Shown here piece by piece: positions 8,744-62,060 of a stretch of DNA of 64,000 nucleotides. Source of the stretch: Fimbriimonas sp. GTDB lineage: Bacteria; Armatimonadota; Fimbriimonadia; Fimbriimonadales; Fimbriimonadaceae. The DNA lies in assembly GCA_965248555.1 (NCBI GenBank), contig CBDFJP010000002.1, positions 2,134,093 to 2,198,092 of the forward strand, read 5' to 3'. A program made the position numbers and the translations under genes. A model generated the notes under the pieces. It had not been told where the DNA came from and made no database searches. It saw only the letters and a program-made list of their open reading frames with translations. Position 1 is the stretch's first letter; the number at the start of each line of letters is the position of its first letter.

Positions 8744-9085
8744 TCAGAGCGCCTTCAGCTGAACATAAAGCTGCCTCGGCGCCGTCTCGAAATACTTGAA
8801 CAGAGCGGGACATAACCACCCATCCATCTCAAACGGCTCGCAGTAGTACACGTTTCCGCCCATATCTTCGCGCTGCCAGTCCAGCCGCAACTCGTATCCC
8901 GGAAACTCGCCAGCCGAAAAGACCAGCGCAAATCCGGTTTCCGCGTTCGGGATTCCCGCACTCGCAAGCTCGATCAGAGTGTCCGCGCCTGCCACAAACG
9001 GCTCTTGAACCAACCCCCGGGGCTCATCATCAAACACCCACATACCGAGGGCCTTGTAGGGTTTGATTACGAAGATGGAATTCAT
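8744..9085 (-). CDS. small conserved hypothetical protein
   Basis: 113-aa ORF, MNSIFVIKPYKALGMWVFDDEPRGL..., compact and acidic. Convergent with the previous gene. Confidence 0.55.
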   Translation of the reverse strand: MNSIFVIKPYKALGMWVFDDEPRGLVQEPFVAGADTLIELASAGIPNAETGFALVFSAGEFPGYELRLDWQREDMGGNVYYCEPFEMDGWLCPALFKYFETAPRQLYVQLKAL

Positions 9086-9103
9086 CCCAACAGTCTAACC
9101 AAA

Positions 9104-10606
9104 TCACGCTTTTTGCGGAGCGATTGCGAACAACTTCGCCTTCATTGCCTCCACTTTCTCGGGCATCGAAGCGGCGAGATCGGTCTTCTGCGACAAGTCC
9201 TTGGCGACGTCATACAGCTCCCATTTCTTTCCATTCGGAACCAGCACAAAGTCGCCCTCGCGGTAAGCAAGCGGAGAGTTAAAGCCGCCCAAATGGTGGA
9301 CCACGGACCCCCGCCCCTTTCGCGCCAGCTTGAAGAACGCATCATAAGTATCCACCCCGTCGGGACTCGCGCCCGGAGCCAGTGAAGTTCCCAGAACTCG
9401 GGCGAACGAGGCGAAAAAGTCGGTCTGAGTCACCATCGTCTGTGAAGTCTTCCCGCGAGCCATCTTCGCCGGCCAAGAGACCAGCATCGGAACCCGGTGA
9501 CCGCCCTCATAGAGCTGGTACTTGGTGCCGCGTAGAACCCCGTTCACCTTATGCCCATTCAAATTCTCACGAGGATCAGCGTAGCCATCCTGATCCACCG
9601 CTCCATTGTCCGAGCTAAAGATCACTATCGTGTTCTTGTCAATGTTTGCCTCTCTCAATGTCCGCAGAACTTCTCCCACCGACCAATCGAGCTCCGAGAT
9701 CGTATCGCCCCGTAGCCCGCACTGACTCTTCCCGTCAAAGCGCGAATTCGGTAGGAGCGGAGCATGTACGTCATGGGTGGCGAAATAAAGGAAGAACGGA
9801 CTTGATCTGTTCGATTTGATAAAATTCACCGCCTTCGAAGTGATCGTATCAGCGATGTCCTCATCAACCCACCGCGCCTTCTTCCCGCCTGTCATAAATC
9901 CGATCCGGCTCACGCCGTTAATAACCGTTCCAAGATGCCCCTGCACAGGCTGAATCTTCAGCAGTTCAGGTTTCTCCAGCCCAGCAGGCTCGTCTCCGAT
10001 TTTCTTTTGATAGCTCAGTTCAATCGGGTCAGAAGGGTCGTAACCGGCCACCCGGCCGTTCTCCACGAACACGCAAGGCACCCGGTCGCCCGTCGCCGGA
10101 ATCACAAAGCTCTCATCAAAGCCAACTTCTTTCGGCCCCAAAGTGATGAGCTTGTTGTAATCAGTTTTTCCCTCGCCAAGCCCCAGGTGCCACTTACCCA
10201 TCACCGCCGTGCGATAGCCCGCCGCCTGAAACATTTTCGGCATCGTCGGCTGATCCTTGGTGATCGACGACGGTGCCACCCCACTCAGAACTCCCGAACC
10301 GCCGGGCTTGCGGAACGAGTACTCGCCCGTCATCAACGAGTAGCGCGTCGGCGTACAAACCGTCGCCGCCGAGTGAGCATCCGTAAACCGAACACCATTC
10401 TTCGCGATGCTGTCCAGATTCGGAGTCTTCACCTTCGTCGCCCCATAACAACTCAGGTCGCCGTATCCAATGTCGTCGGCAAGGATGAAGACAACATTCG
10501 GTCGCTCCGACTGTATACTTGGCTGACCCGATGCCAGTCCGACTGCGAGCAAAGAAAGGAGCATTTGGAACGATCTTACTTGCTTCCGGCTGTTTGGGAC
10601 TAGCAC
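9104..10606 (-). CDS. arylsulfatase (formylglycine-dependent sulfatase)
   Basis: NVVFILADDIGYGDLSCYG and the CTPTRYSLMTGEY (CxPxR) motif, with an N-terminal signal peptide. An alternative ATG lies at 10564. Confidence 0.9.
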   Translation of the reverse strand: MLVPNSRKQVRSFQMLLSLLAVGLASGQPSIQSERPNVVFILADDIGYGDLSCYGATKVKTPNLDSIAKNGVRFTDAHSAATVCTPTRYSLMTGEYSFRKPGGSGVLSGVAPSSITKDQPTMPKMFQAAGYRTAVMGKWHLGLGEGKTDYNKLITLGPKEVGFDESFVIPATGDRVPCVFVENGRVAGYDPSDPIELSYQKKIGDEPAGLEKPELLKIQPVQGHLGTVINGVSRIGFMTGGKKARWVDEDIADTITSKAVNFIKSNRSSPFFLYFATHDVHAPLLPNSRFDGKSQCGLRGDTISELDWSVGEVLRTLREANIDKNTIVIFSSDNGAVDQDGYADPRENLNGHKVNGVLRGTKYQLYEGGHRVPMLVSWPAKMARGKTSQTMVTQTDFFASFARVLGTSLAPGASPDGVDTYDAFFKLARKGRGSVVHHLGGFNSPLAYREGDFVLVPNGKKWELYDVAKDLSQKTDLAASMPEKVEAMKAKLFAIAPQKA

Positions 10607-11532
10607 TCGGCTGTTCCAAGCCAGAAGTCGCGGCGAGCAAGCCGACAGCCGACGTGCTAAAAGAGATGATCTTGATCCAGGGAGGCAAGTTCCGGATGGG
10701 CTCTGACGCCGGCCTCATGGACGAGCAACCCATCCATGAAGTCACGATCTCCGCTTTCCTCATCGACGAACATGAAGTCAGCAACGCTCAGTTCTCCGAG
10801 TTTGTGAAGGCAACTGGGTACGTCACCACCGCCGAGATAAAGCCCGACCCCAAAGATTTCCCCGGCGTCCCCGCTGCAAATCTCGTCCCCGGTGCAGGCG
10901 TTTTTGTCGAAAGTAAGGGCTGGACCTACAAGCCCGGTGCCTCCTGGCGCAAGCCCGAAGGAGAGGGCTCTTCAATCCAGAAGAAGATGGATCACCCCGT
11001 CGTCCAAGTTAGCTGGGACGACGCCACTGCTTATGCAAAGTGGGCTGGAAAACGGCTCCCCACCGAGGCTGAATGGGAGTTCGTCGCCCGCTACAAGAAT
11101 GGTGACAAAGAGTTCCTTTGGGGAGACAACGACATCAGTGAGACCAAGCCTCAAGCCAACATCTGGCAAGGTGAGTTTCCGGTCAAGAACTCAAACGCGG
11201 ACGGTTTCCGCACCACCGCCCCCATTAAATCGTTCCCGCCCTCCCCCGCTGGCTCGTACGACATGGCAGGAAATGTGTGGGAATGGACCGACGACTGGTA
11301 CCGCCCAGATTCCCATGCCCAGTGCGAACCTACCAACCCGAAAGGTCCAAAGGACTCAGTTGACCCCGAAGAACCGGGCGTGATGAAGAAGGTGATCAGG
11401 GGCGGCTCCTTCCTCTGCTCGCTCACTGGATGCCGTGGCTACCGCCCAAGCGCCCGAATGAAATCCTCCCCCGACACCGGCCTCATGCACCTCGGCTTCC
11501 GGTGCGTCAAATCCCTACCTCCCAGAAACTGA
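10519..11532 (+). CDS. formylglycine-generating enzyme family protein (SUMF1/FGE), lipoprotein
   Basis: Lipobox LALGCS. Motifs HEVSNAQFSEFV, RLPTEAEWEF, GNVWEWTDDWY and RGGSF. TTG at 10519 or ATG at 10531. Divergent from the sulfatase. Confidence 0.9.
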   Translation: MADPMPVRLRAKKGAFGTILLASGCLGLALGCSKPEVAASKPTADVLKEMILIQGGKFRMGSDAGLMDEQPIHEVTISAFLIDEHEVSNAQFSEFVKATGYVTTAEIKPDPKDFPGVPAANLVPGAGVFVESKGWTYKPGASWRKPEGEGSSIQKKMDHPVVQVSWDDATAYAKWAGKRLPTEAEWEFVARYKNGDKEFLWGDNDISETKPQANIWQGEFPVKNSNADGFRTTAPIKSFPPSPAGSYDMAGNVWEWTDDWYRPDSHAQCEPTNPKGPKDSVDPEEPGVMKKVIRGGSFLCSLTGCRGYRPSARMKSSPDTGLMHLGFRCVKSLPPRN

Positions 11533-11533
11533 A

Positions 11534-12547
11534 ATGATTACGCCCCTGATCGTCGCCTCGCTTATGACCGCCAAGTCGGAGATGCAACGCATAGAATCTC
11601 TCTTCGTTAACCCAAAAACGGGCTTCTTCATTGAATCCACCACCGAGCGACATCCGGTCTATAACTGGGGAATCGGAGTCCTCATTTCTGCCCAAAACGC
11701 CATCACAAACCTAGATACTAACTACAAGCCCAAACTCGAACAGTCGCTCGAAAAAGCGATGCTCTATTGGAACCCAATCGGCTCCGTCCCCGGTTTCGAC
11801 GTCCAGCCAAACGTCCAGAATGACCAAGATCGATACTACGACGACAACGCCTGGATGGTCATGGCCCTCATCGAAAGCTACGAGATCACTGGCAATGAGA
11901 AGTGGTTAAAGCGTGCGGAAGAGTCTTTAAAGTATGTTCTCAGCGGCGAAGACGACAGGCTCGGCGGCGGAATCTACTGGAAGGAGCGAGAGAAGACCTC
12001 CAAAAACACTTGCTCAAATGCACCAGCCGCCGCCGCCTGCCTCGCCGTCTTCAAACACGTCCATGATCATAAACTCTTTGAGAAGGCCGTGACACTCTAT
12101 GATTGGACTAAAAGGAATCTCCAAGCACCCGACGGCCTCTATTGGGACAACGTCCAGCTCAACGGAACAATTGGCAAGACAAAGTGGAGCTACAACTCCG
12201 CGCTCATGCTTCGCACCGCAAAAAAGCTTGCCGCACAAACCCACGATGACAAGTACCACAAGGACGCGAACCGTCTCGAAGCCGCCTGCATCAAGAAATG
12301 GATAAAACCCGACGGGACGATCGATGATGAGCTTCAATTCGCCCACCTACTCTTCGAAAACCTCGACCCCAAAAAATTCGACGCCAAGAAATGCATCGAC
12401 AAAATGCTCGCCGGCCGAGACGCCGAAGGCTTCTTCGGCAAACGCTGGGGCATCCCCTCAACCGGCAAACACCAACTCATCCACCAAGTCTCAGCCGTTC
12501 GAGCGCTGGCGGTCTACGAACAAAATCTCCAGCAAAAGCTTTTCTAG
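11534..12547 (+). CDS. glycoside hydrolase family 76-like (alpha-1,6-mannanase type)
   Basis: RYYDDNAWMVMALIESYEITGNEKWL, GGGIYWKE, KNTCSNAPAA and LYDWTKRNL follow the GH76 pattern. Confidence 0.7.
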   Translation: MITPLIVASLMTAKSEMQRIESLFVNPKTGFFIESTTERHPVYNWGIGVLISAQNAITNLDTNYKPKLEQSLEKAMLYWNPIGSVPGFDVQPNVQNDQDRYYDDNAWMVMALIESYEITGNEKWLKRAEESLKYVLSGEDDRLGGGIYWKEREKTSKNTCSNAPAAAACLAVFKHVHDHKLFEKAVTLYDWTKRNLQAPDGLYWDNVQLNGTIGKTKWSYNSALMLRTAKKLAAQTHDDKYHKDANRLEAACIKKWIKPDGTIDDELQFAHLLFENLDPKKFDAKKCIDKMLAGRDAEGFFGKRWGIPSTGKHQLIHQVSAVRALAVYEQNLQQKLF

Positions 12548-14194
12548 GCCCTCTTCATCCCCAAAATCAAAGTGTCGCCCGTCCACCCCGACGCCCGGCG
12601 TACAGATGACAGGAATCCCAAGTGCGATCGCCTTCAATGCCACCGCTGGTCTGTTTACAAAAACGGAACCGAAATAGGCAACAGAAGCCGATTCCATCGG
12701 GTGTGAATCTCCATCGACAACAGTGACGCCGCTCCAAAAGTCGGTTCCCTCAAAATTGTTTCCCTCCACGGCCACAACCAAGCCCATTTTACGAGCGACA
12801 TTTCGAAGGGCATGTGCGCCCGTTCGCCCGAGCGTCGGTCCCCCGAACCACACGTATCTCATGGCCAGACTAACTGGGCCGGGCCGAGGAGAGGGCCGAT
12901 TCCACGCAATTAGTTCGGCGCCCCTTATGCCCTGCAAGCCCAGCCATTTTGCAACAAAAGGGTGCGCGGTAACGACGCGATCCGCCTCTCTCAAGAGCGC
13001 CATCTCTCGGCTCACCGCGTCGGGATCGGCGCGAAAATCGCGCAAGTTTTCGCACTCCGGGTAATGCGCGGAAGCAGAATCCAGAAGCTCATGCAGAAGA
13101 GCCAACGGTGGAGTTGTACACCACACCTCTACCCTCCGCCCGCCCAGAACCCCCTGCTTACTCAGCGTGTCCAAAAACTGTAGCTCAGTGACAATCGAGT
13201 CAGCTCGGTAGTCCACCCGGCGCGCATAAGCCGCCGCAAATCGCTCGGCATACTCAAGAGTCGTTCGTCTCCGATCAGGGGCCGTTTTTGCGCCACGCAG
13301 TGCCAGCGGCCGCTGGATGGTCAGTAACTTCAATTCCTCAGCGGAAACGTGCCAGTCGTATCTCGAGGCTCGTCGCCACGGAGTAAAAACTTGGGCGTTC
13401 TCGGCCTGAACAAGCTCCCGAAACTCCGGAAACACGGCGTCGAGAATATACGCTCGGCGCGATGTCACTGAACTAAGCGGCGTTGCCAGTTGATGCTCGA
13501 AACACCCCTCTTGCCCACACGTCATGCAGCTATTTGGCCTCAGACCCTGGTTTAGCACACGGAGCGGCATCAAGCTTTCTGGCACCTTTTTACTGACTTC
13601 TGCAGACCAGAACTCCACCACCAACTCGCTCCCCGTAATGCGGGCCTGAATCTGGGTTCGCCTCGGAACCGAGAACCGGAGGTCGATATAGTTCCAAAAC
13701 ACAGTCGCATCCCGGTCAAGCTCGGAGGCACTTCCCGGTAGCCGCGAAGTGTGCCGATGACGCTCAATGATCGTCGCCCCAGACTTGAGTGCCAAATCGT
13801 ACAGCGCATTTGAGAGTTGACAAAGCCCGCCACCAACCGAAGGAATGATGCACCCTTCGCGAAGCTCGCGCCCCTCAACAAACCCCCGCCGCCGGGTCGC
13901 GCGACCAATGATCTGCCAAAAGCTGAACTGATGGCCCGCCTCCAAAACCACCCCGTTCAGCGAAGCACAAGCGACTCGGAGATTCTGAATCTTCCCAAGC
14001 TCCAGCCCAAGCTCTCTTGCGTCGTCTTGTGTACGCAATGGCGAGTGATGTCTTGTCAGATGAGTTAATTCTGGGCAAGAAAGGTTTCGCTCAAACTTGG
14101 GCCGACGAGAATTCTTTAGAGCACGGCGAAGTTGGAGAAGCCTTGCTTTGAATAGAAAAAGCACTTGGCCGCGCAGTGAGTGCCTTTCCATCAT
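12491..14194 (-). CDS. VanW-domain protein with a C-terminal GT-B-like extension
   Basis: VanW core FSFWQIIGRATRRRGFVEG...GGGLCQLSNALY...HRHTS. The C-terminal part ends in a glycosyltransferase-like ALGIPVICTPGVG segment. Confidence 0.7.
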   Translation of the reverse strand: MMERHSLRGQVLFLFKARLLQLRRALKNSRRPKFERNLSCPELTHLTRHHSPLRTQDDARELGLELGKIQNLRVACASLNGVVLEAGHQFSFWQIIGRATRRRGFVEGRELREGCIIPSVGGGLCQLSNALYDLALKSGATIIERHRHTSRLPGSASELDRDATVFWNYIDLRFSVPRRTQIQARITGSELVVEFWSAEVSKKVPESLMPLRVLNQGLRPNSCMTCGQEGCFEHQLATPLSSVTSRRAYILDAVFPEFRELVQAENAQVFTPWRRASRYDWHVSAEELKLLTIQRPLALRGAKTAPDRRRTTLEYAERFAAAYARRVDYRADSIVTELQFLDTLSKQGVLGGRRVEVWCTTPPLALLHELLDSASAHYPECENLRDFRADPDAVSREMALLREADRVVTAHPFVAKWLGLQGIRGAELIAWNRPSPRPGPVSLAMRYVWFGGPTLGRTGAHALRNVARKMGLVVAVEGNNFEGTDFWSGVTVVDGDSHPMESASVAYFGSVFVNRPAVALKAIALGIPVICTPGVGVDGRHFDFGDEEGLEKLLLEILFVDRQRSNG

Positions 14195-14239
14195 TTCCTA
14201 AGGGTTTTGACGTGAAAGTAGGAGGTAACAGTTCGCACT

Positions 14240-15019
14240 TTAAGCGATCTTTCGCCGCCTTAGGAGCGCTGCCATCCCAAACGCAAGCCCCGCTAGCGTC
14301 GCCGGCTCTGGCACAACCGAAGGGTTGAGGGCCATGGCATAGACATCGCGGTGCGGGCCAACGCTGATGAAGCTCGTCGCGGCCGTTGTGGGGTTCACAG
14401 TGTAGAACTCGCGGTGGAAGAACGACACTGCATAGAGGGTTCCAGACTGGTCAAAGTCGATGTCTGCCACGTAGCTGAACGCGTCCGAAATCGGCATCGA
14501 TCCGATCAGATTCGCGGCGGACGAAGCAGAGGGAACTTGAAACAAGAAGTCATTGTTGAGACCCTGTCGGGCAGTGAGGAAAATCGACGAGTCGGTCGGC
14601 CGAAAAGCGACCCCCGTGACTGTCAAAGCCGAGAGCGAAGGAATCGAATAGCTTGCGGTAATCGCCGAGAGACCCAGGTCATAGAAAAACAACGACTGAT
14701 TAGCGTTACTAAAACCCCAAAGCCCATTGTTCGCCCAGTCGAGATCGCCGATTTGCCCAAGTCCTAATGAACCCGCCGGAATCGACCCGCTCGAAGTCGG
14801 CGTCCACAAGTTCCCAACTGGGTCAGCAAAGTACATCGTCCCGCCCGGAGCCATCGCTAGGCTCTCAGAAGGCAGGCCCGTGGTGAACAAAAGCGGCTCC
14901 GTCTGAGTCGCCATATCCACGTTCCGAATCTGCTGATTCGCCGTCAGCACCCTCGCCAACGGCCCCGCAAGCGCCACCGACCCAACCAAGCCAAACACTA
15001 CACAAAAAGCAAAACGCAT
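14240..15019 (-). CDS. PEP-CTERM sorting-domain protein
   Basis: Signal peptide. The C-terminus VPEPATLAGLAFGMAALLRRRK is a textbook PEP-CTERM anchor. Confidence 0.8.
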   Translation of the reverse strand: MRFAFCVVFGLVGSVALAGPLARVLTANQQIRNVDMATQTEPLLFTTGLPSESLAMAPGGTMYFADPVGNLWTPTSSGSIPAGSLGLGQIGDLDWANNGLWGFSNANQSLFFYDLGLSAITASYSIPSLSALTVTGVAFRPTDSSIFLTARQGLNNDFLFQVPSASSAANLIGSMPISDAFSYVADIDFDQSGTLYAVSFFHREFYTVNPTTAATSFISVGPHRDVYAMALNPSVVPEPATLAGLAFGMAALLRRRKIA

Positions 15020-15050
15020 CCTGCAGTTATACAGTGTTTGACTGACAGAG

Positions 15051-16409
15051 TCAAACCGGCTCGAACCAGGCGGTAAAGTGCCGCAAAATCGGGGCCTGTT
15101 TCGTGATCCTCAAGCCCTTCGCTTCATGACGTTTGAGAGCTAGGCGAGCGAATACCTCGCCGATGTAGTTGACATGAGCCTGGGTATACACGCGGCGCGG
15201 CATCGCGAGCCGAACAAGCTCCCGATCTGCCGGAATCTCGACGCCATCCACACACCGCCCAAACATCCCCGAGCCGATCTCGACGCCCCGTATTCCGCCT
15301 TCCTGGTACAGATCGCAGACCAGTGCCTGCGCCGGGAACTGACTCTGGGGAAGGTGGTCATAAAACGACCTTGCATCCACATAAACCGCATGCCCCCCCG
15401 GTGGCTGGACGATGTTCACCTCGCTCTCAGCCAGGCGCGAAGCCAGGTACCGAATCGTCGCCAGCCGATACTCCAAGTACGACTCATCCAGGACCTCGTT
15501 GAGGCCAATCGCCAGAGCCTCCAGGTCGCGCCCCGCAAGTCCGCCATACGTCGGAAATCCTTCTGTCAGGATCAAAAGATTCCGCGCCTGCTCCGCCATT
15601 GCGTCGTCGTTTAAGGCGAGGAAACCTCCGATATTCCCGAATCCATCCTTCTTCAGGCTCATCGTCGCGCCATCGGCGTAGCTGAAAATCTCTTTGGCAA
15701 TCTCTCGCGGAGTTTTGTCCTTGTAGCCTTCTTCGCGCTCCTTGATGAAGTAGGCGTTCTCCGCAAAACGGCAAGAGTCAATGATAAACGGCACCCCGTA
15801 CTTGCGATACAACCCCGAAACCGCGCGGATGTTTGCCATCGAAACCGGCTGTCCGCCGCCCGTATTGTTGGTGATCGTAATCATCCCGATAGGACACTTG
15901 CCCTCCTTCAAGGTGGCCTCAAGCGCATCAAGGTCGATGTCGCCCTTAAAGGGGTGCATCGAGGCCGGGTCGCGCCCCTCGGCGATGACCAAGTCTCGCG
16001 CCTCCGCGCCCGAAAACTCGACGTTGGCCCGAGTGGTGTCGAAGTGATTATTGTTCGGAATCACCTTCCCGGACCCGCCCACAATCGACATCAAAATCTT
16101 CTCAGCCGCCCGCCCCTGGTGGGTGGGAATCACGTGTTTGAACCCAAAAATCTCCTGAATCGTCGACTCAAACCGCTTGAACGACCGCGACCCCGCATAG
16201 CTCTCGTCGCCGATCATGATTCCGCCCCACTGAGCGGCCGACATCGCGCTCGTACCGCTGTCGGTCAGAAGGTCGATCAGCACGTCATCCGCGTCAATAA
16301 GAAACGTATTGTAGTGAGCCTTGCGCAAAATTTCCGCGCGCTCTTCGGGCGTGGTTCGACGAATGGGCTCGACGACCTTTATACGAAATGGCTCGATAAT
16401 TTCCGACAT
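15051..16409 (-). CDS. beta-eliminating lyase (tyrosine phenol-lyase / tryptophanase family)
   Basis: EPFRIKVVEP, DLLTDSGTSAMS, and PLP-lysine context SLKKDGFGNIGGFLAL. Confidence 0.9.
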   Translation of the reverse strand: MSEIIEPFRIKVVEPIRRTTPEERAEILRKAHYNTFLIDADDVLIDLLTDSGTSAMSAAQWGGIMIGDESYAGSRSFKRFESTIQEIFGFKHVIPTHQGRAAEKILMSIVGGSGKVIPNNNHFDTTRANVEFSGAEARDLVIAEGRDPASMHPFKGDIDLDALEATLKEGKCPIGMITITNNTGGGQPVSMANIRAVSGLYRKYGVPFIIDSCRFAENAYFIKEREEGYKDKTPREIAKEIFSYADGATMSLKKDGFGNIGGFLALNDDAMAEQARNLLILTEGFPTYGGLAGRDLEALAIGLNEVLDESYLEYRLATIRYLASRLAESEVNIVQPPGGHAVYVDARSFYDHLPQSQFPAQALVCDLYQEGGIRGVEIGSGMFGRCVDGVEIPADRELVRLAMPRRVYTQAHVNYIGEVFARLALKRHEAKGLRITKQAPILRHFTAWFEPV

Positions 16410-16447
16410 GGTGTGGGTAAAGGACGGACTGCCTTACTCCAAAGCGT

Positions 16448-17191
16448 CTACTTCATTGCCAGCTCGGCTGCGGTAGGCAGCCATTTCATCGTGCGGCCGT
16501 ATTTCGCCGCAATCGGAACTAGGTACCGAGCGGTCTTGTACAGCCGAGCATGTTCTTCGATGGAGTCGATATGGGCGGCAATATCGTCCCGCTTTGAGCC
16601 GAGGTGAAAGTGTTCGCATCCCATCTTCCGAAGCTGATCCCCCTCTGCGAGCAGGAATTCATACTCGGCTGAGTCATCTATATGGTGCTTAGTCTTCACC
16701 GCATCCGGGTAGCGGACATTAGCTACGTTCTGGATGGCCTCGCTAGTCGACAGCGTGGTTAAGTAGTCCCAGCGAAAAGCCACTTGTGAGCCAAACACTT
16801 TGAAGCCAGTTCGCGCAGTCATAGGCATGATGAACATGCCAAAAATCCTCTGTCCGTCTGGAGACCTAGAGCCCAGCGAAATGGAGTAGTGATCGAGGTA
16901 ACTCACTTCACTGGAAAAACTAGTGACGTCAACATCCCCAAAATCGGCGTTCGGCTCGATGTACTTCTTTGCGAAATCAACAAACGTCTTCTCCGACCAC
17001 GCCGTCGAGAATCGCCACGCAGTCTGGCTCTTGTAGACACCCGCCCAGTCGCGCTTGCGAATCAGCTCGGCGATTGACCTGGCCTGTCTCTCCGGAGCAC
17101 CAAGGATAAAAACATATCCCGATGCCACAACTAACAAACCGGCGACAAACACTAAAAGAGGAAGTTTAAATCGAGGACGCATTCTCCTCAT
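16448..17191 (-). CDS. membrane-anchored hypothetical protein, paralog family A (copy 1 of 3)
   Basis: N-terminal TM helix. Shares RKRDWAGVYK, EKTFVDFAKKYIEP and YEFLLAEGDQLRKMG blocks with 21426-22136 and 22172-22834. Confidence 0.6.
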   Translation of the reverse strand: MRRMRPRFKLPLLVFVAGLLVVASGYVFILGAPERQARSIAELIRKRDWAGVYKSQTAWRFSTAWSEKTFVDFAKKYIEPNADFGDVDVTSFSSEVSYLDHYSISLGSRSPDGQRIFGMFIMPMTARTGFKVFGSQVAFRWDYLTTLSTSEAIQNVANVRYPDAVKTKHHIDDSAEYEFLLAEGDQLRKMGCEHFHLGSKRDDIAAHIDSIEEHARLYKTARYLVPIAAKYGRTMKWLPTAAELAMK

Positions 17192-23175: not shown

Positions 23176-24685
<1,510 letters not shown>

Positions 24686-54905: not shown

Positions 54906-55259
54906 GGGGGCGTCAGGGTTCGACAGGACTGAAGCGACTCACCGTTGCGAGCCGTGGATTCTCGTTGGCCACGTAAAAAACGAGAAAAAAATAACTGCAA
55001 ACAACAACTTTGCATTCGCAGCCTAAGTAGCCGCGCATGAGCCAGTTCTGAGCCAGTAAGAACTGATCCTCGTGTAGCCAAATCTGGATCGCTAGGGCGA
55101 GCTTCTGTTCGTAGCAGACCCGGCTAAACAAAACCGAACTAAGGGTGCGCTAGGCGGTCTCGGCAGAGGCGCACTTCGAAAATCCAAACTGAGAAGACGC
55201 TCGTGGTAACGCTGGGAAGGCGGTTTTGGAAGGGAGTTCAATTCTCCCCGCCTCCACCA
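54906..55259 (+). ncRNA. ssrA: tmRNA (SsrA), tag ANNNFAFAA
   Basis: 5' GGGGGCGTCAGGGTTCGACAGG and 3' GGAGTTCAATTCTCCCCGCCTCCACCA. The acceptor stem has G3-U70. The tag reading frame gca aac aac aac ttt gca ttc gca gcc taa is at 54997-55026. Confidence 0.95.
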
Positions 55260-55556: not shown

Positions 55557-55572
55557 TGTGACCCAAGTCACA
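55557..55572 (+). promoter_or_regulatory. perfect CRP-type box TGTGA-cccaag-TCACA upstream of gene 55633
   Basis: Seen directly. Its centre at 55564.5 is about 42 nt upstream of the TSS implied by the -10-like TACAGT at 55595-55600. Confidence 0.6.
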
Positions 55573-55598
55573 TCCCCCCGCTAGACCCCGCCTGTACA

Positions 55599-55632
55599 GT
55601 GTTTCCAATACCCTCGCCGGTATAGGAAACAC
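55599..55632 (+). promoter_or_regulatory. 34-nt palindrome / stem-loop abutting the start codon of gene 55633
   Basis: gtgtttcc-a-atacc-ctcgcc-ggtat-a-ggaaacac forms 13 bp with one A-A mismatch. The 3' arm contains the AGGA Shine-Dalgarno-like element and ends at the base before the ATG. Confidence 0.5.
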
Positions 55633-56538
55633 ATGAAACTCAAACAGACAAAATCGTCCATCCCAGCAGTTGGCCTAGCTCTCGCTTTCGCTCTTTCCGC
55701 TGGAGTCCTCGCCCAGAACTCTGGTCAAGCCAAACCGAGCCAAGAGCAGGGCTACACCAGAGAAAATCCATTTGAATTCTCCGCTTTGGCGAGCAAGAAC
55801 ATTACGTTCAACGGTAAGCCTGCGATCCGAACCGACAGCCAGGACGCGGCGATGCAGAGCCAATTTGAAGTTGCCGACAAGGCATTCGCTAACGCAAAGA
55901 GTTCTGCCGCTCCACCCTACTTCAAGACGGTTTTTTACGCCGGCTACGGCGATAAGAACCAGCGTCCAAACCAAGCAGAGGACGTTGCCACTAACCACGG
56001 GCCCTGGCCAAGTTCGCCCACGATTAACCCTTCGTTCGAAGCCCAATCCGACTCAATATGGCCAAATTCGACAGTGATGGCCGTCAGGATGAACCTCACG
56101 GGATATCCGGTGTTTAACCCGGCAAAGGTGCGGGAAGCAAGTCTCAAGATCGACATATTCTTCGACCCGACTCGCGCACAGGGTTCTAGCGCCCTCTACG
56201 CATGGGATGATCAGACGAGTAATCCCATTCCCTTAATGCTACCAACGCAATGGAATTTGTTCCGGAACCGAGCCGCGTCCATGTTTGGTGGTCAAGCCCG
56301 ATGGATATCGGTAGTACTCGACTTGACACCCTCGAATCCGCTCCCCGTTGCCTATATGTATGACATTAATAGCTTTGGAAACCCCATTGCGAATCGCTGG
56401 ATGGGGCCCTTTACGAGCTTCCCAGCCGCATCTCGGAGCAGCCTTTTGCAGGCAGCGGCGAACGGCAACTTACAACTATATGCGCTCCCCCATCTCCCTG
56501 TCAGCCATGCAGAACTGGTCATCAAAGAATCGTTCTGA
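55633..56538 (+). CDS. secreted hypothetical protein
   Basis: Signal peptide MKLKQTKSSIPAVGLALAFALSAGVLAQ. No family recognised. Confidence 0.6.
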   Translation: MKLKQTKSSIPAVGLALAFALSAGVLAQNSGQAKPSQEQGYTRENPFEFSALASKNITFNGKPAIRTDSQDAAMQSQFEVADKAFANAKSSAAPPYFKTVFYAGYGDKNQRPNQAEDVATNHGPWPSSPTINPSFEAQSDSIWPNSTVMAVRMNLTGYPVFNPAKVREASLKIDIFFDPTRAQGSSALYAWDDQTSNPIPLMLPTQWNLFRNRAASMFGGQARWISVVLDLTPSNPLPVAYMYDINSFGNPIANRWMGPFTSFPAASRSSLLQAAANGNLQLYALPHLPVSHAELVIKESF

Positions 56539-56558
56539 CCTGAGCGAACTTACAACCT

Positions 56559-57632
56559 ATGGCTCAGGTCCCACCTGAGCCAAGAGTCACCTTCCCGGAG
56601 CAAACAATGTTGTCCGCATCAACGATCCTCTTCACCCTCCTCGTAACAAAGTCACAGAAAGGTCAGCCAAAGCCACCTAAATCCCAACCGCCGCCCATCC
56701 AAGTCCCTTGGCAAGGCCCCAAACGGCTCATCCAAATGGGGGCCTTCGAGCTAAAAACAACCCGAATCACCAGCGGACAAGGCGGCGTCTCCTTCTCTGC
56801 CTCCTCCGGAAATGTCTCGGGCGGTGGAGCCTCTTCTGGCCCGCAATCTCTCGATATCGCCGACCCAATGGTGTTCAGCGCCGGAGTGGCAGACATTGCC
56901 AAAACCGAGTTCGCCGCGTTCCGAGGATTCGATCTCATCGAACCCGCCCCACCTGGCCAAGATGGCACCAACTCAACTCCGCCCGAACGCCTCCCTAGGC
57001 CCCAATTCATCCTCAACGCCACGATCTCGGACATTACAGTCCGAACAAAGTCAGGCGGAATTCGAATCGGCCCCATCGGCGGCGGCAAAGAGAGATTTTC
57101 CAACAAGGTCGTCATCGAAATGCGCTTCATCGACCCCGAAACCCGAGTGATCATGGTCGGATGCAAGGCAACTGGCGAGAAATTTTCGGAAGCAAACACA
57201 ATGGCAGTCTTGGCAGACAGCGCCTTCGGCGAAGTCCCCGTTGCCAGCTTCGGCGAGTTTCAGGAGAGTCCCCTCGGCGAAGCCACCCGAGCCGCCCTTC
57301 AAGACGGACTCAAGCAGCTCTGCGCCGAACTGATGAAACTCGGCTGGACCAGCGAAGTGATCGACATTCAAGAAGCCGACGGAGTCAAAACGGCACTCTT
57401 CGAAGTCGTCGAAGGCCTAAAAGTCGGCGACATCATCGAATCCATCACGCCCGGACGCATCATTAGAGACCCCAAATCGGGACGTAGGCTCGGCGAGACA
57501 AAAGCCCAAATCCTCGGTCAGCTCAAAGTGACGGCGATCAACGGAAGCCTGGTCGAAGCCATCGGCATTGACGGATTCGTCCCTGAAGTCGGACACATCA
57601 TCCGACCCAAGCCAACAGTAAAACAAAAATGA
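56559..57632 (+). CDS. possible CsgG/HfaB-like envelope protein (low-confidence family call)
   Basis: N-terminal hydrophobic segment. FILNATISDITVRT...VVIEMRFIDPETRVIM...SPLGEATRAALQDGLKQL resembles the CsgG core. A likely start is the ATG at 56607. Confidence 0.45.
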   Translation: MAQVPPEPRVTFPEQTMLSASTILFTLLVTKSQKGQPKPPKSQPPPIQVPWQGPKRLIQMGAFELKTTRITSGQGGVSFSASSGNVSGGGASSGPQSLDIADPMVFSAGVADIAKTEFAAFRGFDLIEPAPPGQDGTNSTPPERLPRPQFILNATISDITVRTKSGGIRIGPIGGGKERFSNKVVIEMRFIDPETRVIMVGCKATGEKFSEANTMAVLADSAFGEVPVASFGEFQESPLGEATRAALQDGLKQLCAELMKLGWTSEVIDIQEADGVKTALFEVVEGLKVGDIIESITPGRIIRDPKSGRRLGETKAQILGQLKVTAINGSLVEAIGIDGFVPEVGHIIRPKPTVKQK

Positions 57633-57641
57633 CGATCGTAG

Positions 57642-60191
57642 GTACAATCGCGCCTATATACCTTCCTGCACACCGACCTCGAAGGCAGTAGTGCCGCGTG
57701 GGATATTGACCCCCAAAAGGCGAAGTCCGAAATCGCCCGCCTGTTCCAGCGCACCGAAACCGCAACCTTCAAGGCGGGCGGACGAGTCTACAAAAAGCGG
57801 GGCGATGGTCAAGCCGCCGTCTTCCAAAACAGCGACGATGCCCTCAACGCGATCCACGACCTTGCCAACGACCCAAACGCCGTCGAACTGCTCCCTCGGC
57901 TCCGACTCGTTCTCCACTGCGGCGAGGCCGAAGACCTCGGCGACGAGTTCTTAGGTGCCTGCCTCAATGTCGTTGGCCGACTGCTCGACGCCGCTCACCC
58001 CGGCCAAATCCTCGCCACCGACGAGTTTTTGCGTACGTGCAAAAATCCACCGGGTTCTGCTGAGCTCGATAAGCTAAGGCTCCGAGGCATCGCCTCGCCA
58101 ATTCGAGTCTTCCAACTCAATCTCGGCGGATCGCAAACGGAGTTCCCGCCCCTGAGGGGTTCCGCCCCGCCGACCAATCTTCCCCGGCTCCCCGCCGACT
58201 TCTTCGGGCGCAAGTCCGAACTCAACGACTTGACCAAGCTGATTATCGAAAAAAAGCTTCCCCTAGTCACCGTGCGCGGGTTCGGTGGAGTCGGCAAAAC
58301 CACCCTCGCCACTCAGTTCGCCCACAACGTATCAGACCACTTCCAAAACCGGATCTGGTGGGTCAGAGCCGATCACGCATTTTCCGCCGAACACCTCCTT
58401 GAGCAAATCTGTCACGCCCTCCGGTTCGAGCAAAACGCGACGGAACTCCTCGGTGCCCTCCCCGACATCTGCCAAAAACCAAGTCTCCTCGTCTTCGATT
58501 GCTTTGAATCAGCCGTAGAATTCGGAAGTGTAGTCACCGAAATACTGGAAGCCGCGCCCCAACTTCAGGCCGTCGTCACCAGCCGAAGACGGCTAGAACT
58601 CGACCAAGAATACGTCCTCGAACTTGGCGGAATCGTCAACACCACCAGCCTAAGACCCAACTGGGAGCCGGGCTTCTCCCTCTTCGAGCGCGCAGCCAAC
58701 CGAGCAAGTACTGGATTCAAACTCGGCGTGGCAGATCGCCCCCAGATCAAGTCCATCATCACCCGTGTCGACGCAATCCCCCTTGCGATCCAGCTCTGCG
58801 CGGGGAGGGTCAACCACATGACCCTCGCGCAAATCGATTCACAACTCGCCAAGAACCTTCTCGCAACCCTCAACCGAACCACCACAACCACCGACCGCCA
58901 CGGAAGCATGTCCACCGTCATTCAGGCATCCTTCGACCTGCTCAGCGAAGGCGAACGGGAACTCCTCGCAATGCTCGCGGCATTCCGCAAAGGCTTCGAT
59001 CTCGAAATTGCCAAACAAGTCACCCAGTACCGCAACTTCTTCGACACCTTCGGAGCACTCACAAACGCCTCCATGATCTCGCGGCAGACGGATGGCACGA
59101 CCCAACGCTTCCGCCTCCTCGACCCCGTCATCGAGTTCATCCGCGGGGTCGTCGCCCTCCTCCCAAGCCACCATTTTCAGCGGAGATTTTGCCATCACTA
59201 CGAGGCGTGGGCAATCAAAATGTCCAGTACAACCGACCGACAGGACTCGCTCACCAACGAAGTCGGAAACCTCGTCTCAGCCATCGAGTGGATGTGGTCA
59301 ACCCCAGAACTGACCCCGAACGACGAGTTCGTCAACCGAGTCCCACGGTTCCTCTACGACAACGGCTTCCTCTTCGAGTTCGACCTGCTTGTCGAAAGGA
59401 TTCTCGGATTCCACCACTTCACAGGCGTTGAGGCAAAAGCGGACGTGTACTCACTGGTCGCTGTTCGACACCGAACAGGCAAAAACTTGGAAGAAATGCG
59501 AACCGCGCTGAAACAGCGGTGGGAGTTGTTAAGGCCCCTACCGATTACAGGCCGAACCATTGATGCTCTTGGAGAAATCTGCGTCGCCGCCTGCGAGCAT
59601 CAGCACTCAGACTCAATAGACCTAGACCGTCTGTTGGATGAGTTTACGCTCACGCGCTCACAGTCGAGCGACGGCGAACTGCCCAGAAACTTGGATTGGG
59701 ATGCCGTTGAGCTGAACCTCCTTTTCAACTGCCGACGTACCGCCGACGCTCTCATGCTGGCCTCTGAGCTCATCACACGACTCAAAACACTGGAGCCTAA
59801 ATACTTCGGCTTTGCCTCCCGAATCACTGCCGAAATCTCACTACAAAGCGGCCAATTCCAAAACTCCGTCGCCATGTACACACGGCTCGCTCATAGCACC
59901 CAACCCCACTCACAGGCCGTCGGAATCTATGGCCTAGGGAAGTGTTCTGTAGCAATGGAAAAGTGGGAAGTTGCTACATTGTGCGTCGCGAGCCTCTACT
60001 CCTTCGAGCGCTCCGAAGCCCCCCGAGCCCATGCCTTCGCCGCAGACCTGAATAGGCTACTGCCACACTCTCCTAGTCGCGCCGAACCCATCCAAGACCC
60101 GGAAGATCGCGCAATGATCGTCTCCACAATTTTGGACTGTTTGCAGAATTGTGATCACGATCACACACAGGAATATACCAATCCCTTATAG
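57642..60191 (+). CDS. class III nucleotidyl cyclase domain + STAND/NB-ARC-like P-loop NTPase + helical-repeat protein; start codon unresolved, possibly frameshifted
   Basis: The open frame starts after TAG 57639-57641. Cyclase motifs FLHTDLEGSS, KKRGDGQAAVF, LRLVLHCGEAE and NVVGRLLDAAHPGQIL lie upstream of the first canonical start (TTG 58029, ORF-track start). Walker A is GFGGVGKTTLA and Walker B-like is LLVFDCFE. The C-terminal ~400 aa are helical-repeat-like. Confidence 0.7.
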   Translation, partial: VQSRLYTFLHTDLEGSSAAWDIDPQKAKSEIARLFQRTETATFKAGGRVYKKRGDGQAAVFQNSDDALNAIHDLANDPNAVELLPRLRLVLHCGEAEDLGDEFLGACLNVVGRLLDAAHPGQILATDEFLRTCKNPPGSAELDKLRLRGIASPIRVFQLNLGGSQTEFPPLRGSAPPTNLPRLPADFFGRKSELNDLTKLIIEKKLPLVTVRGFGGVGKTTLATQFAHNVSDHFQNRIWWVRADHAFSAEHLLEQICHALRFEQNATELLGALPDICQKPSLLVFDCFESAVEFGSVVTEILEAAPQLQAVVTSRRRLELDQEYVLELGGIVNTTSLRPNWEPGFSLFERAANRASTGFKLGVADRPQIKSIITRVDAIPLAIQLCAGRVNHMTLAQIDSQLAKNLLATLNRTTTTTDRHGSMSTVIQASFDLLSEGERELLAMLAAFRKGFDLEIAKQVTQYRNFFDTFGALTNASMISRQTDGTTQRFRLLDPVIEFIRGVVALLPSHHFQRRFCHHYEAWAIKMSSTTDRQDSLTNEVGNLVSAIEWMWSTPELTPNDEFVNRVPRFLYDNGFLFEFDLLVERILGFHHFTGVEAKADVYSLVAVRHRTGKNLEEMRTALKQRWELLRPLPITGRTIDALGEICVAACEHQHSDSIDLDRLLDEFTLTRSQSSDGELPRNLDWDAVELNLLFNCRRTADALMLASELITRLKTLEPKYFGFASRITAEISLQSGQFQNSVAMYTRLAHSTQPHSQAVGIYGLGKCSVAMEKWEVATLCVASLYSFERSEAPRAHAFAADLNRLLPHSPSRAEPIQDPEDRAMIVSTILDCLQNCDHDHTQEYTNPL
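60150..60165 (+). promoter_or_regulatory. second perfect CRP-type box TGTGA-tcacga-TCACA, inside the 3' end of the STAND gene
   Basis: Seen directly. The centre is at 60157.5 and a -10-like TATAGT lies at 60187-60192. The implied TSS near 60199 puts the box at -41.5 and coincides with the in-frame ATG at 60200. Confidence 0.55.
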
Positions 60192-60193
60192 TT

Positions 60194-61414
60194 ATGAGCA
60201 TGGGAAGAAACAATCCAATCAAACGCAAAGAGATCAAACCAGGACCACGGCCTCGCCGAATCGTGGAGCCCCTCGGAATCGGCACATTCGTCACTCTCGA
60301 TTACGGCGTTAACGTGCAGAGTCGCAACGAGTACGCCGTCATGCTACTCTCCGACAACTGGGCCTCCCTCCGGGACCTCCTCTACGATCCCCAGGCGTTC
60401 GTCGACGCCTGGAGACAGCGCTACACATGGACGCCAACGATGACATTCGAGTCGGGTACTTCCACGAAGTCAATGCCAGACTGGAAGCTAGTCGGACCAA
60501 TCACGATTCAAATCGAACCTCTCACTGTTCCCACTCCTTCAAACCTTCTCCTTCTCAGTGGGCTAACTTCGATGTATCCCGAGCTCAAAACTGTGATTGC
60601 TGCCGGCGCACTAGGTAATCAGGACTTCGCCGCTAAACTGACCAAAGCGCTTGTTCCCGCAGCTCCCTCTGCCCCTCGAGTCCGAAGGAGCAATCCAATG
60701 AACCTCGCACCAATGAGGGCTGCAAACCCAGTCACGCTCGATTCGTGCACGACCGAACCGCCGCCAAAGCCGCTCGCGTACATTGTCGAGTTTGCCGTGC
60801 TTACCCGGATCATGACAATCAAGTATGTTCCTCAGCCCGAAACTTCGCCACGCTGGTTCGAAGCCATCGGAACGTTCGAGCAGCAACGAGGCAATCCTTC
60901 TGCGAAGACCAAAGATGATTTCACTGGAATCAATTTGAACAATGTCGCAGGAACGGACCTCACGTTCATGCACTTCGACATCGCGTTCGACGAGCTAGTA
61001 CGGCCCCATACCCATGACGATGTATCAAGACGACGGGCAGATTTTGTCATGAGCTATCTTGAGAAGTTCGACTTCTTTATGGCGATGAAGCGCCCCTCTG
61101 ACGTAGCAACTCTCGCAACCCTCAAACCCGATGACAACAACCACGTTTTGGACCAACCGGGCTACACAAATCCGTATCCGATTACGAAGCTCAAAATGAT
61201 TGGTAATCAAAGAGGCCCCAGTGTCACCATTGACTCGGTTTACTCGCCTACAGACCCGCAACTTCAGAAAGTAGCACCTCCCTTCATTTGTGTTCTCGGC
61301 GTTACGGTGCCGGTCACGGATGCAAATGGAAATGTCATCTATGATTCGAACGGTAATGTGAATGAGTGGACAACTAATGGGGTGATCGTCAAGTCTTACC
61401 AGGCCCCCGCCTAA
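60194..61414 (+). CDS. orphan hypothetical protein (406 aa)
   Basis: ORF 2 nt after the STAND gene stop, with a basic N-terminus MSMGRNNPIKRKEIKPGPRPRR. There is no SD and no family recognised. The alternative ATG at 60200 may be a leaderless start. Confidence 0.6.
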   Translation: MSMGRNNPIKRKEIKPGPRPRRIVEPLGIGTFVTLDYGVNVQSRNEYAVMLLSDNWASLRDLLYDPQAFVDAWRQRYTWTPTMTFESGTSTKSMPDWKLVGPITIQIEPLTVPTPSNLLLLSGLTSMYPELKTVIAAGALGNQDFAAKLTKALVPAAPSAPRVRRSNPMNLAPMRAANPVTLDSCTTEPPPKPLAYIVEFAVLTRIMTIKYVPQPETSPRWFEAIGTFEQQRGNPSAKTKDDFTGINLNNVAGTDLTFMHFDIAFDELVRPHTHDDVSRRRADFVMSYLEKFDFFMAMKRPSDVATLATLKPDDNNHVLDQPGYTNPYPITKLKMIGNQRGPSVTIDSVYSPTDPQLQKVAPPFICVLGVTVPVTDANGNVIYDSNGNVNEWTTNGVIVKSYQAPA

Positions 61415-61418
61415 CCCA

Positions 61419-62060
61419 ATGGCTGAAAACGCACAGTACCTCGCCAAAGTTGATCTATTCGCGAGCCTCCCGGCGGAGCGATTAGATCAACTTGGCGCTC
61501 TCTGCACCCGGACCAAACTCGCCCCCCAAGAGATTCTCTTGCGTGAAGGCGACCCGGGAAGCACCCTCTATTTCATTATCGGCGGAGTCCTGAGGGTCGA
61601 GCGATACACCGCCCGAGGCGGTGTGGTCCACCTAGCCATGCGCAGTGCCGGGGACACCATCGGCGAACTCTCGATCCTCACCGACGGCTACCGCTCAGCC
61701 TACGTCGTCGCCCACACCTCCGCCAAACTCCTCGTCATGGAGCGCGCCGCGTTCCTAAAGTACGCTCTGACTGAACCCGAGGTCACCCTCGCCCTCCTCG
61801 CCCGCCTCGCCGAGCGCGTCAAAGAAGCCTCGGAACTGGTCGTCTCCCGATCCGCCGCTTCCGTGGAGGACCGAATCCTCCAACTCATGCTCTCCATGGT
61901 CGACTCTGAAGGCGAAATCACCCTCAAAGAGTCCCAAGCCGAACTCGCAAACCGAATCGGCTGTTCCCGAGAAGCCCTCAGCCGCGCCATCGCAAAACTC
62001 GTCGACGACCGCCGCCTAGACCGCCTCAGCCCAAAAACCTACCGATGGACTGCAGTCTAG
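61419..62060 (+). CDS. CRP/FNR-family cNMP-binding transcriptional regulator (CRP-like recognition helix)
   Basis: cNMP pocket IGELSILTDGYRSAYVVA. The HTH GCSREALSRAIAKL compares with E. coli CRP GCSRETVGRILKML. Confidence 0.85.
   Translation: MAENAQYLAKVDLFASLPAERLDQLGALCTRTKLAPQEILLREGDPGSTLYFIIGGVLRVERYTARGGVVHLAMRSAGDTIGELSILTDGYRSAYVVAHTSAKLLVMERAAFLKYALTEPEVTLALLARLAERVKEASELVVSRSAASVEDRILQLMLSMVDSEGEITLKESQAELANRIGCSREALSRAIAKLVDDRRLDRLSPKTYRWTAV

Follow-up and report, generated by a model that had tools for sequence, protein, structure and literature searches.

The locus considered here occupies positions 55557-62060 of a 64-kb stretch of Fimbriimonas sp. DNA, the whole of which is referred to below as the window, and it comprises five genes on the + strand (g1 to g5) together with two sites for a regulator of the CRP family. 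In order, these genes are g1 (55633-56538), which encodes a secreted-type protein of 301 residues with a signal-like N terminus; g2 (56559-57632), encoding a CsgG-like protein of 357 residues; g3 (57642-60191), an open frame of 849 codons with a class III nucleotidyl cyclase-homology domain followed by a STAND NTPase module; g4 (60194-61414), encoding an orphan protein of 406 residues; and g5 (61419-62060), encoding a CRP-family regulator of 213 residues. The coordinates of the open reading frames (ORFs) bear out the tight packing described in an earlier note on this DNA, with spacers of 20 nucleotides (nt) between g1 and g2, 2 nt between g3 and g4 and 4 nt between g4 and g5. The 9-nt gap that it gave between g2 and the g3 frame also stands, but its other suggestion for this junction, a g3 start at the 'ATGA' ATG at 57629, does not, as that codon lies in a different frame and is followed by a stop after 20 codons. 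CRP box 1 (TGTGACCCAAGTCACA, 55557-55572), a palindrome, lies upstream of g1, and CRP box 2 (TGTGATCACGATCACA, 60150-60165) lies upstream of g4, within the final 42 nt of the g3 coding frame. Both are, as claimed, perfect matches to TGTGA-N6-TCACA, and they are the sole sites with 0 or 1 mismatch in the 64 kb, in which 0.04 perfect sites would be expected by chance; two perfect sites occurred in 0 of 100 shuffled sequences.

The NB-ARC (STAND) NTPase module of g3 lies at 58200-58937 (+), where Pfam NB-ARC matches residues 198-432 (PF00931, E 1.3e-11, 44.7 bits against a cut-off of 23.5) and AAA_16 matches residues 187-293; the translation contains a Walker A motif, GFGGVGKTT, and a Walker B motif, LLVFDCFE, in agreement with the P-loop STAND/NB-ARC-like module that had been recognized in this frame of about 850 codons. 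The cyclase-homology domain precedes it at 57642-58136 (+, codons 1-165) and is without a canonical start codon. The alignment of the N-terminal 163 residues with 3mr7, a class III cyclase of solved structure, is end to end (E 2.6e-5; residues 4-158 against 6-169), and a PDB sequence search gave further structural matches to Rv1264, Ma1120 and the trypanosome GRESAG4 cyclases. Class III cyclases use two metal-binding Asp residues, a substrate-specifying Lys and Asp, and a transition-state Asn and Arg. In the alignment all of these positions (D/D/K/E/N/R) are filled in the window protein, within HTD, KKRGDG and DEFLGACLNVVGR, and the motifs FxxD, KxxGDG and (D/E)FxGxxxNxxxR are retained in every cyclase-bearing g3 homologue, the last of them as (D)FxGxxxNRxxR in lineages other than the window's sub-clade; the cyclase is therefore not a relic throughout the family. 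The remaining C-terminal part of about 400 residues (58992-60191, +), the presumed sensor arm, had no Pfam or PDB sequence match and is the most divergent part of the protein, with 22-35% identity between lineages. Pfam detected neither TPR nor any other repeat in g3, nor any helix-turn-helix (HTH) family, including the C-terminal LuxR type, and the PDB sequence search gave no match for residues 451-849, so that the helical repeats read into this arm by the earlier note gain no support from either search.

The product of g5 combines a cyclic nucleotide monophosphate (cNMP)-binding domain (cNMP_binding, PF00027, E 1.2e-16, 60.9 bits against a cut-off of 27.5) with an HTH domain (HTH_Crp_2, PF13545, E 6.3e-8, 32.9 bits against a cut-off of 27), and its best PDB matches are to E. 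coli CAP (E 2e-16). Its IGEL...RSA segments pair with the CAP residues G71, E72, R82, S83 and A84, which make the ribose-phosphate contacts, and GCSRE...SR pairs with the DNA contacts R180, E181 and R185; the G, E, R and A of the former and the pattern G-C-x-R...R of the latter are invariant in 8 g5 orthologues. The recognition helix had been described as almost superimposable on that of E. coli CRP, and the aligned equivalents of R180, E181 and R185 confirm it: with R-E-x-x-x-R equal to that of E. coli CAP, g5 should bind TGTGA-N6-TCACA. The accompanying claim of an intact cNMP pocket holds for the ribose-phosphate cassette but not for the adenine contacts, which are considered below. With 66.3 bits against a cut-off of 266 for the NCBIfam CRP equivalog NF008732, g5 is not an orthologue of the enterobacterial CRP.

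As the earlier note had found, g4 carries no recognizable motif, and nothing places it in a well-known housekeeping family: there was no Pfam, PADLOC or PHROG match for any of the 37 aligned members, no NCBIfam match for the window protein and no match in a PDB profile search with the g4 alignment. An AlphaFold2 model built from the 37-sequence alignment reached a predicted local distance difference test score (pLDDT) of 85.3 and a predicted TM-score of 0.88, superseding an earlier model from 3 sequences with a pLDDT of 32. It contains two alpha/beta regions joined by a variable linker of low confidence at about residues 155-195. The best E values from Foldseek searches with this model were 0.46 (PDB) and 0.067 (BFVD), and TM-scores did not exceed 0.12, so that, compared with the structures in these two databases, the predicted fold is provisionally new. 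Nine residues are invariant in the 37 members (A201, T204, Y211, T244, H260, D262, C366, K400 and Y402), several acidic residues are nearly so, and no hydrophobic segment of transmembrane strength was found in g4; from the invariant His, Asp, Cys, Lys and Tyr one might guess at a soluble enzyme. The family is small. A full profile search of 1.84 billion representative proteins yielded 45 members of about 350-450 residues, a word-indexed search of 5.8 billion proteins yielded 3 including that of the window, a scan of viral contigs found no g4, and GTDB representative genomes scanned with a 3-sequence g4 alignment gave no match.

Twelve non-redundant g4 lineages with DNA were available for comparison, and all of their ORFs were compared by BLAST and profile searches. 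The g4-bearing loci are designated here by L-numbers, L009 being the same locus as L005, and L019 the same as L018. A 12-sequence g4 alignment was used for the genome scan, and the metagenome scan yielded nothing beyond duplicates of L003, L005 and L006. The six lineages with a named source are all Armatimonadota metagenome-assembled genomes, of Fimbriimonadaceae and Chthonomonas. An NB-ARC STAND gene adjoins g4 in 11 of the 12 lineages, the contig of the twelfth being too short; the loci with a g3 homologue beside g4 are L001, L003-L008, L012-L014, L016 and L018. A g5 orthologue with 34-63% identity is adjacent in eight (the window, L001/L013, L003/L014, L004, L007, L008, L016 and L017). Across lineages with 25-40% identity g3, g4 and g5 remain linked although the flanking genes are all different, and the three occur together in lineages whose identity is as low as 25-35%. 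The conserved core consists of these three genes, in at least ten lineages; of the five-gene cluster that the earlier note expected to recur in relatives, g1 and g2 are shared as parts of the cluster within the window's sub-clade only.

At two loci the neighbour of g4 is a STAND gene of another kind, and no CRP gene was found at either. In L005 the STAND gene beside g4 (6207-9806) carries BTAD (SARP) and AAA_35 domains and no cyclase, and the spacer at 9815-9890 contains direct repeats of TCAC[AG] that form two pairs with an 11-nt spacing (9822 and 9833, 9853 and 9864); these look weakly like SARP-type sites, at this single locus. In L018 (2360-8028) a CHAT and NB-ARC STAND protein of 1043 residues is followed by two tandem g4 paralogues, and an ECF-sigma-like gene encoding 365 residues lies upstream. 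The simplest explanation for the presence of cyclase plus CRP, SARP and CHAT all beside g4 would be that g4 is the common target of the three outputs, the main alternative being that it is a partner or co-sensor of the STAND protein.

The distribution of CRP boxes follows that of the cyclase and CRP genes. The non-redundant sequence, about 224 kb in all, contains 13 perfect boxes against about 0.15 expected (scaled from 0.04 perfect sites per 64 kb), and, with the exception of one in L016, they lie directly upstream of g1, g3, g4, g5 or the DUF4394 gene of L006. Perfect boxes are found in 10/10 lineages with evidence of a cyclase or CRP, and no box with one mismatch or fewer was found in L005 or L018, which have neither gene. 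The position of box 1 is occupied by a one-mismatch box in L001 and L002, and that of box 2 by a perfect box in L001, L002, L012 and L013; L004 and L007 likewise have one at the g3/g4 junction, and L016 and L017 have perfect boxes between crp and g4. Boxes 7-11 nt before the crp start codon are perfect in L003, L008, L014 and L016 and have one mismatch in L004 and L007, a perfect box precedes g3 in L001 and L002, and in L006 a perfect box lies at class II distance before the DUF4394 gene, two genes upstream of g3. Box 2 seems to be constrained as DNA, since the g3 tail is otherwise unconserved between the window and L001 and retains just the residues that the half-sites encode, CD(H/P)DH.

In class II CRP promoters the site is centred at -41.5, and the -10 hexamer begins 29.5 nt downstream of the centre. 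We scored as -10-like any hexamer with A at its second and T at its sixth position located 29.5 nt (+0 or +1) from the centre of a box. In the window the predicted -10 hexamer for g4-g5, TATAGT (60187-60192, +, 5/6 match), starts 29.5 nt from the centre of box 2, and that for g1, TACAGT (55595-55600, +), starts 30.5 nt from the centre of box 1 and recurs at the identical offset in L001 and L002, so that all three g1 boxes show this spacing. The corresponding g4 hexamers, at an offset of 0 or +1, are TAAGAT in L001, L002, L013 and L017, TATGGT in L004, CACAAT in L007, TAAATT in L016 and TAGCAT in L006, in the last case behind a box with 2 mismatches. A -10-like hexamer at class II spacing is thus present in 7 of the 8 lineages with a g4-proximal box, against a background of 0.011. 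From this geometry we infer class II promoters for g1 and for g4-g5. A scan with the sigma-70 consensus did not reveal a canonical -35/-10 promoter on the + strand, as expected, since class II CRP promoters have no -35 element. The implied g4 transcription start falls on or within a few nt of an ATG in the window, L004, L006 and L007; in the window it coincides with ATG 60200, the second Met codon of g4, so that the g4 mRNA may be leaderless and translation may begin at that codon. The g3 box of L001 and L002, on the other hand, lies only 8 nt before a TAGAAT hexamer, and this box and the crp-proximal ones overlap the core promoter or the 5' end, which suggests repression.

We propose, with a probability of about 0.62, that the module is a self-contained second-messenger relay in which the STAND cyclase would produce a cyclic nucleotide that acts through CRP to induce g4. 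Architectures, synteny, sites and spacing are observed directly in the DNA; each biochemical step set out here is drawn from what is known of the respective families. A signal would act on the divergent C-terminal arm of g3, and NTP-dependent oligomerization would then join the N-terminal cyclase domains, class III cyclase domains being active only as dimers, to yield a 3',5'-cyclic nucleotide. The default expectation for the messenger is cAMP, the most likely product in view of the substrate-specifying pair of Lys and Asp or Glu. The nucleotide would load g5 and allow it to bind TGTGA-N6-TCACA, and the boxes, about 41.5 bp upstream of the predicted starts, would serve as class II activator sites before g4-g5 and g1-g2(-g3). 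Induction would raise g4 and the two envelope or secreted proteins and also CRP itself: g5 follows g4 after 4 nt and has no box of its own in the window, and its co-induction with g4 would constitute positive feedback. In other lineages, where the box lies over the g3 core promoter or 7-11 nt before the crp start codon, feedback would be repression-like; E. coli, which autoregulates crp and represses cyaA, offers a precedent. The product of g4 would be the conserved regulated output of the STAND sensor, and in relatives the cyclase and CRP give way to a SARP DNA-binding domain that forms part of the STAND protein itself, or to a CHAT protease domain, with g4 still adjacent. The closed circuit from sensor-gated cyclase through cNMP and CRP back to the cluster, which the earlier note had envisaged, is in this way strongly supported by comparative genomics (synteny, boxes, geometry and catalytic residues) but not by the start codon of the cyclase in the window.

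Several observations weigh against the relay, the first of them concerning this start codon. There is no ATG, GTG or TTG in the cyclase frame between an in-frame TAG (57639-57641) and TTG 58029, and public annotation starts g3 at the latter codon, giving a product of 720 residues without the cyclase (P0001). In L001 and L002, g3 starts with a GTG, preceded by TAGAAT and a perfect CRP box, and this GTG lies within a 12-nt stretch that is missing from the window, so the cyclase domain may not be made in this genome. Nor is the cyclase easily recognized by family profiles: while the motifs read by the earlier note are upheld by the full-length homology to 3mr7 and by the retained residues, Pfam Guanylate_cyc (PF00211) gave no g3 match at E <= 0.1, the L014 orthologue having a 'weak' precomputed match only, and the substrate-specifying Asp is replaced by Glu in the window's sub-clade. 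In CAP, T127 and S128 contact the adenine base of cAMP. The equivalents in g5 are not conserved (A-S in the window and S-G, A-A, A-T or A-D in other lineages), so that the messenger may be a nucleotide other than cAMP. A box before g4 was not found in L003, L008 or L014, L006 has no adjacent CRP gene, and the independent lineages number only about a dozen. Finally, the NB-ARC domain of L018 is no closer to g3 than are generic actinobacterial cyclase-STAND proteins, so that g4 may be partnered by more than one STAND clade.

As to its biological role, the circuit could serve an anti-phage or programmed-cell-death ('conflict') system, although we consider this unlikely; an invader would be detected by the STAND protein, and g4, as the toxic effector, would be activated either transcriptionally (cAMP-CRP or SARP) or through cleavage by CHAT. 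Such a system would account for the exchange of cyclase, SARP and CHAT at the N terminus of the STAND partner while g4 stays, for the fast evolution of the STAND C terminus relative to the rest of the protein, and for a patchy and rare distribution (45 representatives in 1.84 billion) amid flanking genes that differ between loci; in L014, moreover, the neighbours are a Macro-domain gene and a CHAT-TPR gene. Excerpts from a survey of NTPase conflict systems (Kaur, Burroughs, Iyer and Aravind 2020, PMC7159879) describe effector swapping, the displacement of caspase-like domains by cNMP cyclase domains and an occasional linkage to CRP-like cNMP-sensing transcription factors. On the other hand, no PADLOC model matches g1-g4, and g5 matches Pycsar effector models only through its generic cNMP-binding domain; there was no PHROG match, no copy on a viral contig, no integrase and no att repeat at the nearby tmRNA gene. 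The co-regulated signal-peptide, CsgG-like, PEP-CTERM and DUF4394 proteins would fit surface remodelling better than suicide, and a transcriptional relay is slow for abortive infection. In its boldest form, which we offer as a tentative and rather doubtful suggestion, g4 would represent a new STAND-controlled effector family of previously unseen fold, armed by a cAMP-CRP transcriptional relay, by a SARP domain of the sensor or by a CHAT caspase-like protease; this would be a conflict or cell-fate system whose second messenger is received by a transcription factor instead of a toxin.

It is also improbable, in our view, that g4, instead of being the output of the STAND protein, works with or upon it as a partner, co-sensor or regulator, with the boxes providing feedback on the sensor complex and the true outputs being envelope genes (g1, g2 and those for PEP-CTERM proteins) or genes elsewhere. 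MalT, which has protein partners, is a precedent. A subunit of the sensing machine would be expected beside the STAND gene whichever output domain the latter carries, as g4 is, and the 2-nt gap between g3 and g4 in the window, the overlap of their open frames in L008 and the location of the boxes at crp but not before g4 in L003, L008 and L014 all suit this explanation. Yet g4 has its own predicted class II-type promoter in 7 lineages, and in L016 the two genes are on opposite strands; in most loci 26-135 nt lie between them, and L018 has two g4 copies. Such features would be expected of a regulated target more than of a subunit needed in stoichiometric amounts.

Another doubtful explanation takes the locus of this particular genome to be a broken relic, in which loss of the g2-g3 intergenic region removed the start codon and CRP box of g3, leaving only a STAND protein of 720 residues and a g5 that answers, if at all, to other cyclases. 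The interval without a canonical start codon up to TTG 58029, the lost GTG of L001 and L002 with its TAGAAT and box, and the length of the database entry are what one would expect of such a relic. However, the 129 codons before TTG 58029 remain open, the orphaned cyclase codons are 56.6% identical to those of L001 against 55.8% for the NB-ARC part, and all catalytic motif residues are kept. The window is 40.3% identical to L003 over the cyclase codons, L001 38.0%. Open codons conserved as well as the NB-ARC part suggest that translation continues, that the start went missing only very recently or that the assembly is faulty. A rare start at CTG 57666, or a one-base indel joining ATG 57629 to the frame, are possible routes to a start, and the window retains a -10-like TACAAT at 57643-57648 where L001 has TAGAAT. 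Lastly, that g5 should be the global CRP of the organism, and the boxes ordinary catabolite-type regulation of unrelated neighbours, is very unlikely: neither the recognition helix nor the box, both of E. coli type, is distinctive, and E. coli CRP too acts on crp and cyaA, but the g3-g4-g5 linkage is kept at low identity amid changing flanks, the rest of the window is without a box of 0 or 1 mismatch, and boxes vanish exactly where SARP or CHAT replaces the cyclase and CRP.

The relay resembles several known systems in part. Like g3, the mycobacterial STAND adenylyl cyclases of the Rv0386, Rv1358 and Rv2488c type consist of a class III cyclase followed by an NB-ARC/AAA_16 STAND module. Proteins of the Rv0386 type carry TPR and a C-terminal LuxR HTH, neither of which is detectable in g3, and the cyclase of g3 is below the Pfam threshold. 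In addition, g3 is genetically tied to g4 and to a CRP gene with cognate boxes, and we know of no description of a mycobacterial STAND cyclase locked to such genes. Hundreds of cyclase-STAND proteins match g3 at about 30% identity (E 1e-52 to 1e-41), with PF00211 and either PF00931 or PF13191, and the fusion of a cyclase to NB-ARC is in itself known from a very large family, abundant especially in actinobacteria; the term 'STAND adenylyl cyclases' is found in the literature (Zaveri et al. 2021, as cited in part of PMC11090507). With the E. coli cAMP-CRP system the module has in common the box consensus, the ribose-phosphate and DNA contact residues and the -41.5 geometry, and its boxes at the regulator and cyclase genes can be likened to the E. 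coli feedback. It differs in that g5 is not an orthologue of E. coli CRP and does not keep the T127/S128 equivalents, and in that its cyclase is of class III and STAND-gated, whereas that of E. coli is of class I and controlled by the phosphotransferase system; the module's circuit thus looks local rather than global.

Pycsar, CBASS and Pucsar share with the module the logic of a cyclase whose cyclic nucleotide is received by a protein containing a cNMP-binding domain, and in PADLOC the cNMP domain of g5 matches that of PycTIR effector models (E 2e-12). The likeness to Pycsar/CBASS drawn in the earlier note survives as an analogy but not as membership, since the receptor g5 is a transcription factor with an HTH rather than a TIR or transmembrane effector, and PADLOC gave no PycC match for g3, no match for g4 and no system-level match. 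NTP-dependent conflict systems with swappable N-terminal effectors, and STAND defence proteins of the Avs/bNACHT type, resemble g3 in pairing a STAND NTPase with an output domain that varies at the N terminus, but the effector-like partner of the module is a separate orphan gene behind predicted CRP-dependent promoters, and a term search of PMC7159879, like PADLOC, returned no g4-like family. Among SARP-STAND regulators of the AfsR type, the BTAD, AAA and STAND architecture is similar to that of the g4 partner in L005, and g3 itself is weakly similar over the P-loop region. AfsR has a DNA-binding domain where the window g3 has its cyclase, which suggests that the module output reaches DNA through a diffusible nucleotide and CRP.

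No account of the g3-g4-g5 module emerged from literature searches, so that the earlier suggestion of a system of undescribed composition holds for the module, though not for the cyclase-NB-ARC fusion, which is known. What appears to be new is the fixed association with g4, the conserved cis-regulatory wiring, and the alternation of cyclase plus CRP, SARP and CHAT around one gene. The logic of cAMP-CRP and of class II promoters is textbook knowledge, and STAND NTPases are related, on the bacterial side, to NLR and Apaf-1, which act as switches in immunity and cell death; to our knowledge, the conversion of STAND activation into a response is understood for only a few output domains. If the relay operates as proposed, it would be a compact natural circuit built from a single STAND sensor, messenger and transcription factor together with two or three promoters, and the first concrete cis-regulatory model for Armatimonadota, a phylum with almost no genetics. 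The occurrence of cyclase plus CRP, SARP and CHAT beside the same gene amounts to a natural swap experiment, which argues for convergence on one target, and the g4 family, with its confident and unmatched predicted fold, is a candidate new enzyme or effector. Should g4 turn out to be a mere housekeeping accessory, the finding would shrink to a well-documented local cAMP-CRP regulon.

Upstream of the cluster, a tmRNA gene (54906-55259, +; tag peptide ANNNFAFAA) ends 298 nt before CRP box 1. A genomic island at this gene was considered and rejected: there is no 3'-end repeat, no integrase and no GC anomaly, and the absence of an att-like repeat of the tmRNA 3' end together with that of an integrase does not suggest an insertion at ssrA. 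A complete 16S rRNA gene lies farther upstream (23176-24685, +), with a 512-residue ORF beginning 30 nt downstream of it; no 23S or 5S gene was found anywhere in the 64 kb, so that the rRNA genes are apparently unlinked.

The genes g1 and g2 and those for the PEP-CTERM, DUF4394, DinB_2 and Macro proteins are accessories and not part of the core. PEP-CTERM proteins are encoded after the module in L004 (12141-12824) and in L006, where the protein also has DUF4082; in L006 this gene and the DUF4394 gene with its box account for 5547-6380 and 11350-11994. The CRP regulon may include such exosortase-sorted surface proteins. In L014 a Macro-domain gene is located directly upstream of g3 on the same strand (4839-5390), and a subtilisin-like S8 peptidase and an 851-residue CHAT-TPR protein are encoded 1-3 kb downstream of crp (13174-17182). 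In L007 and L008 small genes precede g3, and these showed no relation to each other. Two extra genes precede g1 in L001 (4305-7803) and L002 (2-2396) and are absent from the window; they encode an 862-residue Trans_reg_C/TPR (SARP-like STAND) regulator and a Gly/Ser/Thr-rich protein of 277 residues with a lipoprotein-like N terminus.

The assignment of g2 as CsgG-like, which had been put forward as a possibility, is sustained by a partial match to CsgG above the gathering score (PF03783, E 1.3e-5, 25.1 bits against 20.8, profile positions 91-207 of 210); NCBIfam and PADLOC add no match. Homologues of g2 are found in L001, L002, L003 and L014, that of L003 scoring 37.3 bits with CsgG. No Cys that could form a lipobox occurs in the N-terminal 60 residues of g2 or its L001 homologue. 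The annotated start, ATG 56559, adds 16 residues without a counterpart in L001, and the internal Met at 56607, which opens a hydrophobic signal-like segment, may be the true start of g2.

The product of g1 was described as a signal-peptide protein without an assigned fold, and so it appears: its N terminus has a hydrophobic signal-like segment, and Pfam, NCBIfam, PADLOC and PHROGs gave no match. The word-indexed search of 5.8 billion proteins found 4 members including that of the window, and g1 is found only in the window, L001 and L002; a suspected kinship with the 347-residue gene beside the CsgG-like gene of L003 was rejected, the two being unrelated. Between the predicted g1 promoter and its start codon, a hairpin is predicted in the 5' untranslated region (55600-55631, +; -14.2 kcal/mol, z-score -5.4), which runs from about the predicted transcription start to 1 nt before the ATG and covers the likely ribosome-binding site. 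The g1 leaders of L001 (7953-7990) and L002 (2523-2557) form a comparable fold from another stem sequence (UGAACC/GGUUCA against UGUUUCC/GGAAACA), and this hairpin may be a translational control element.

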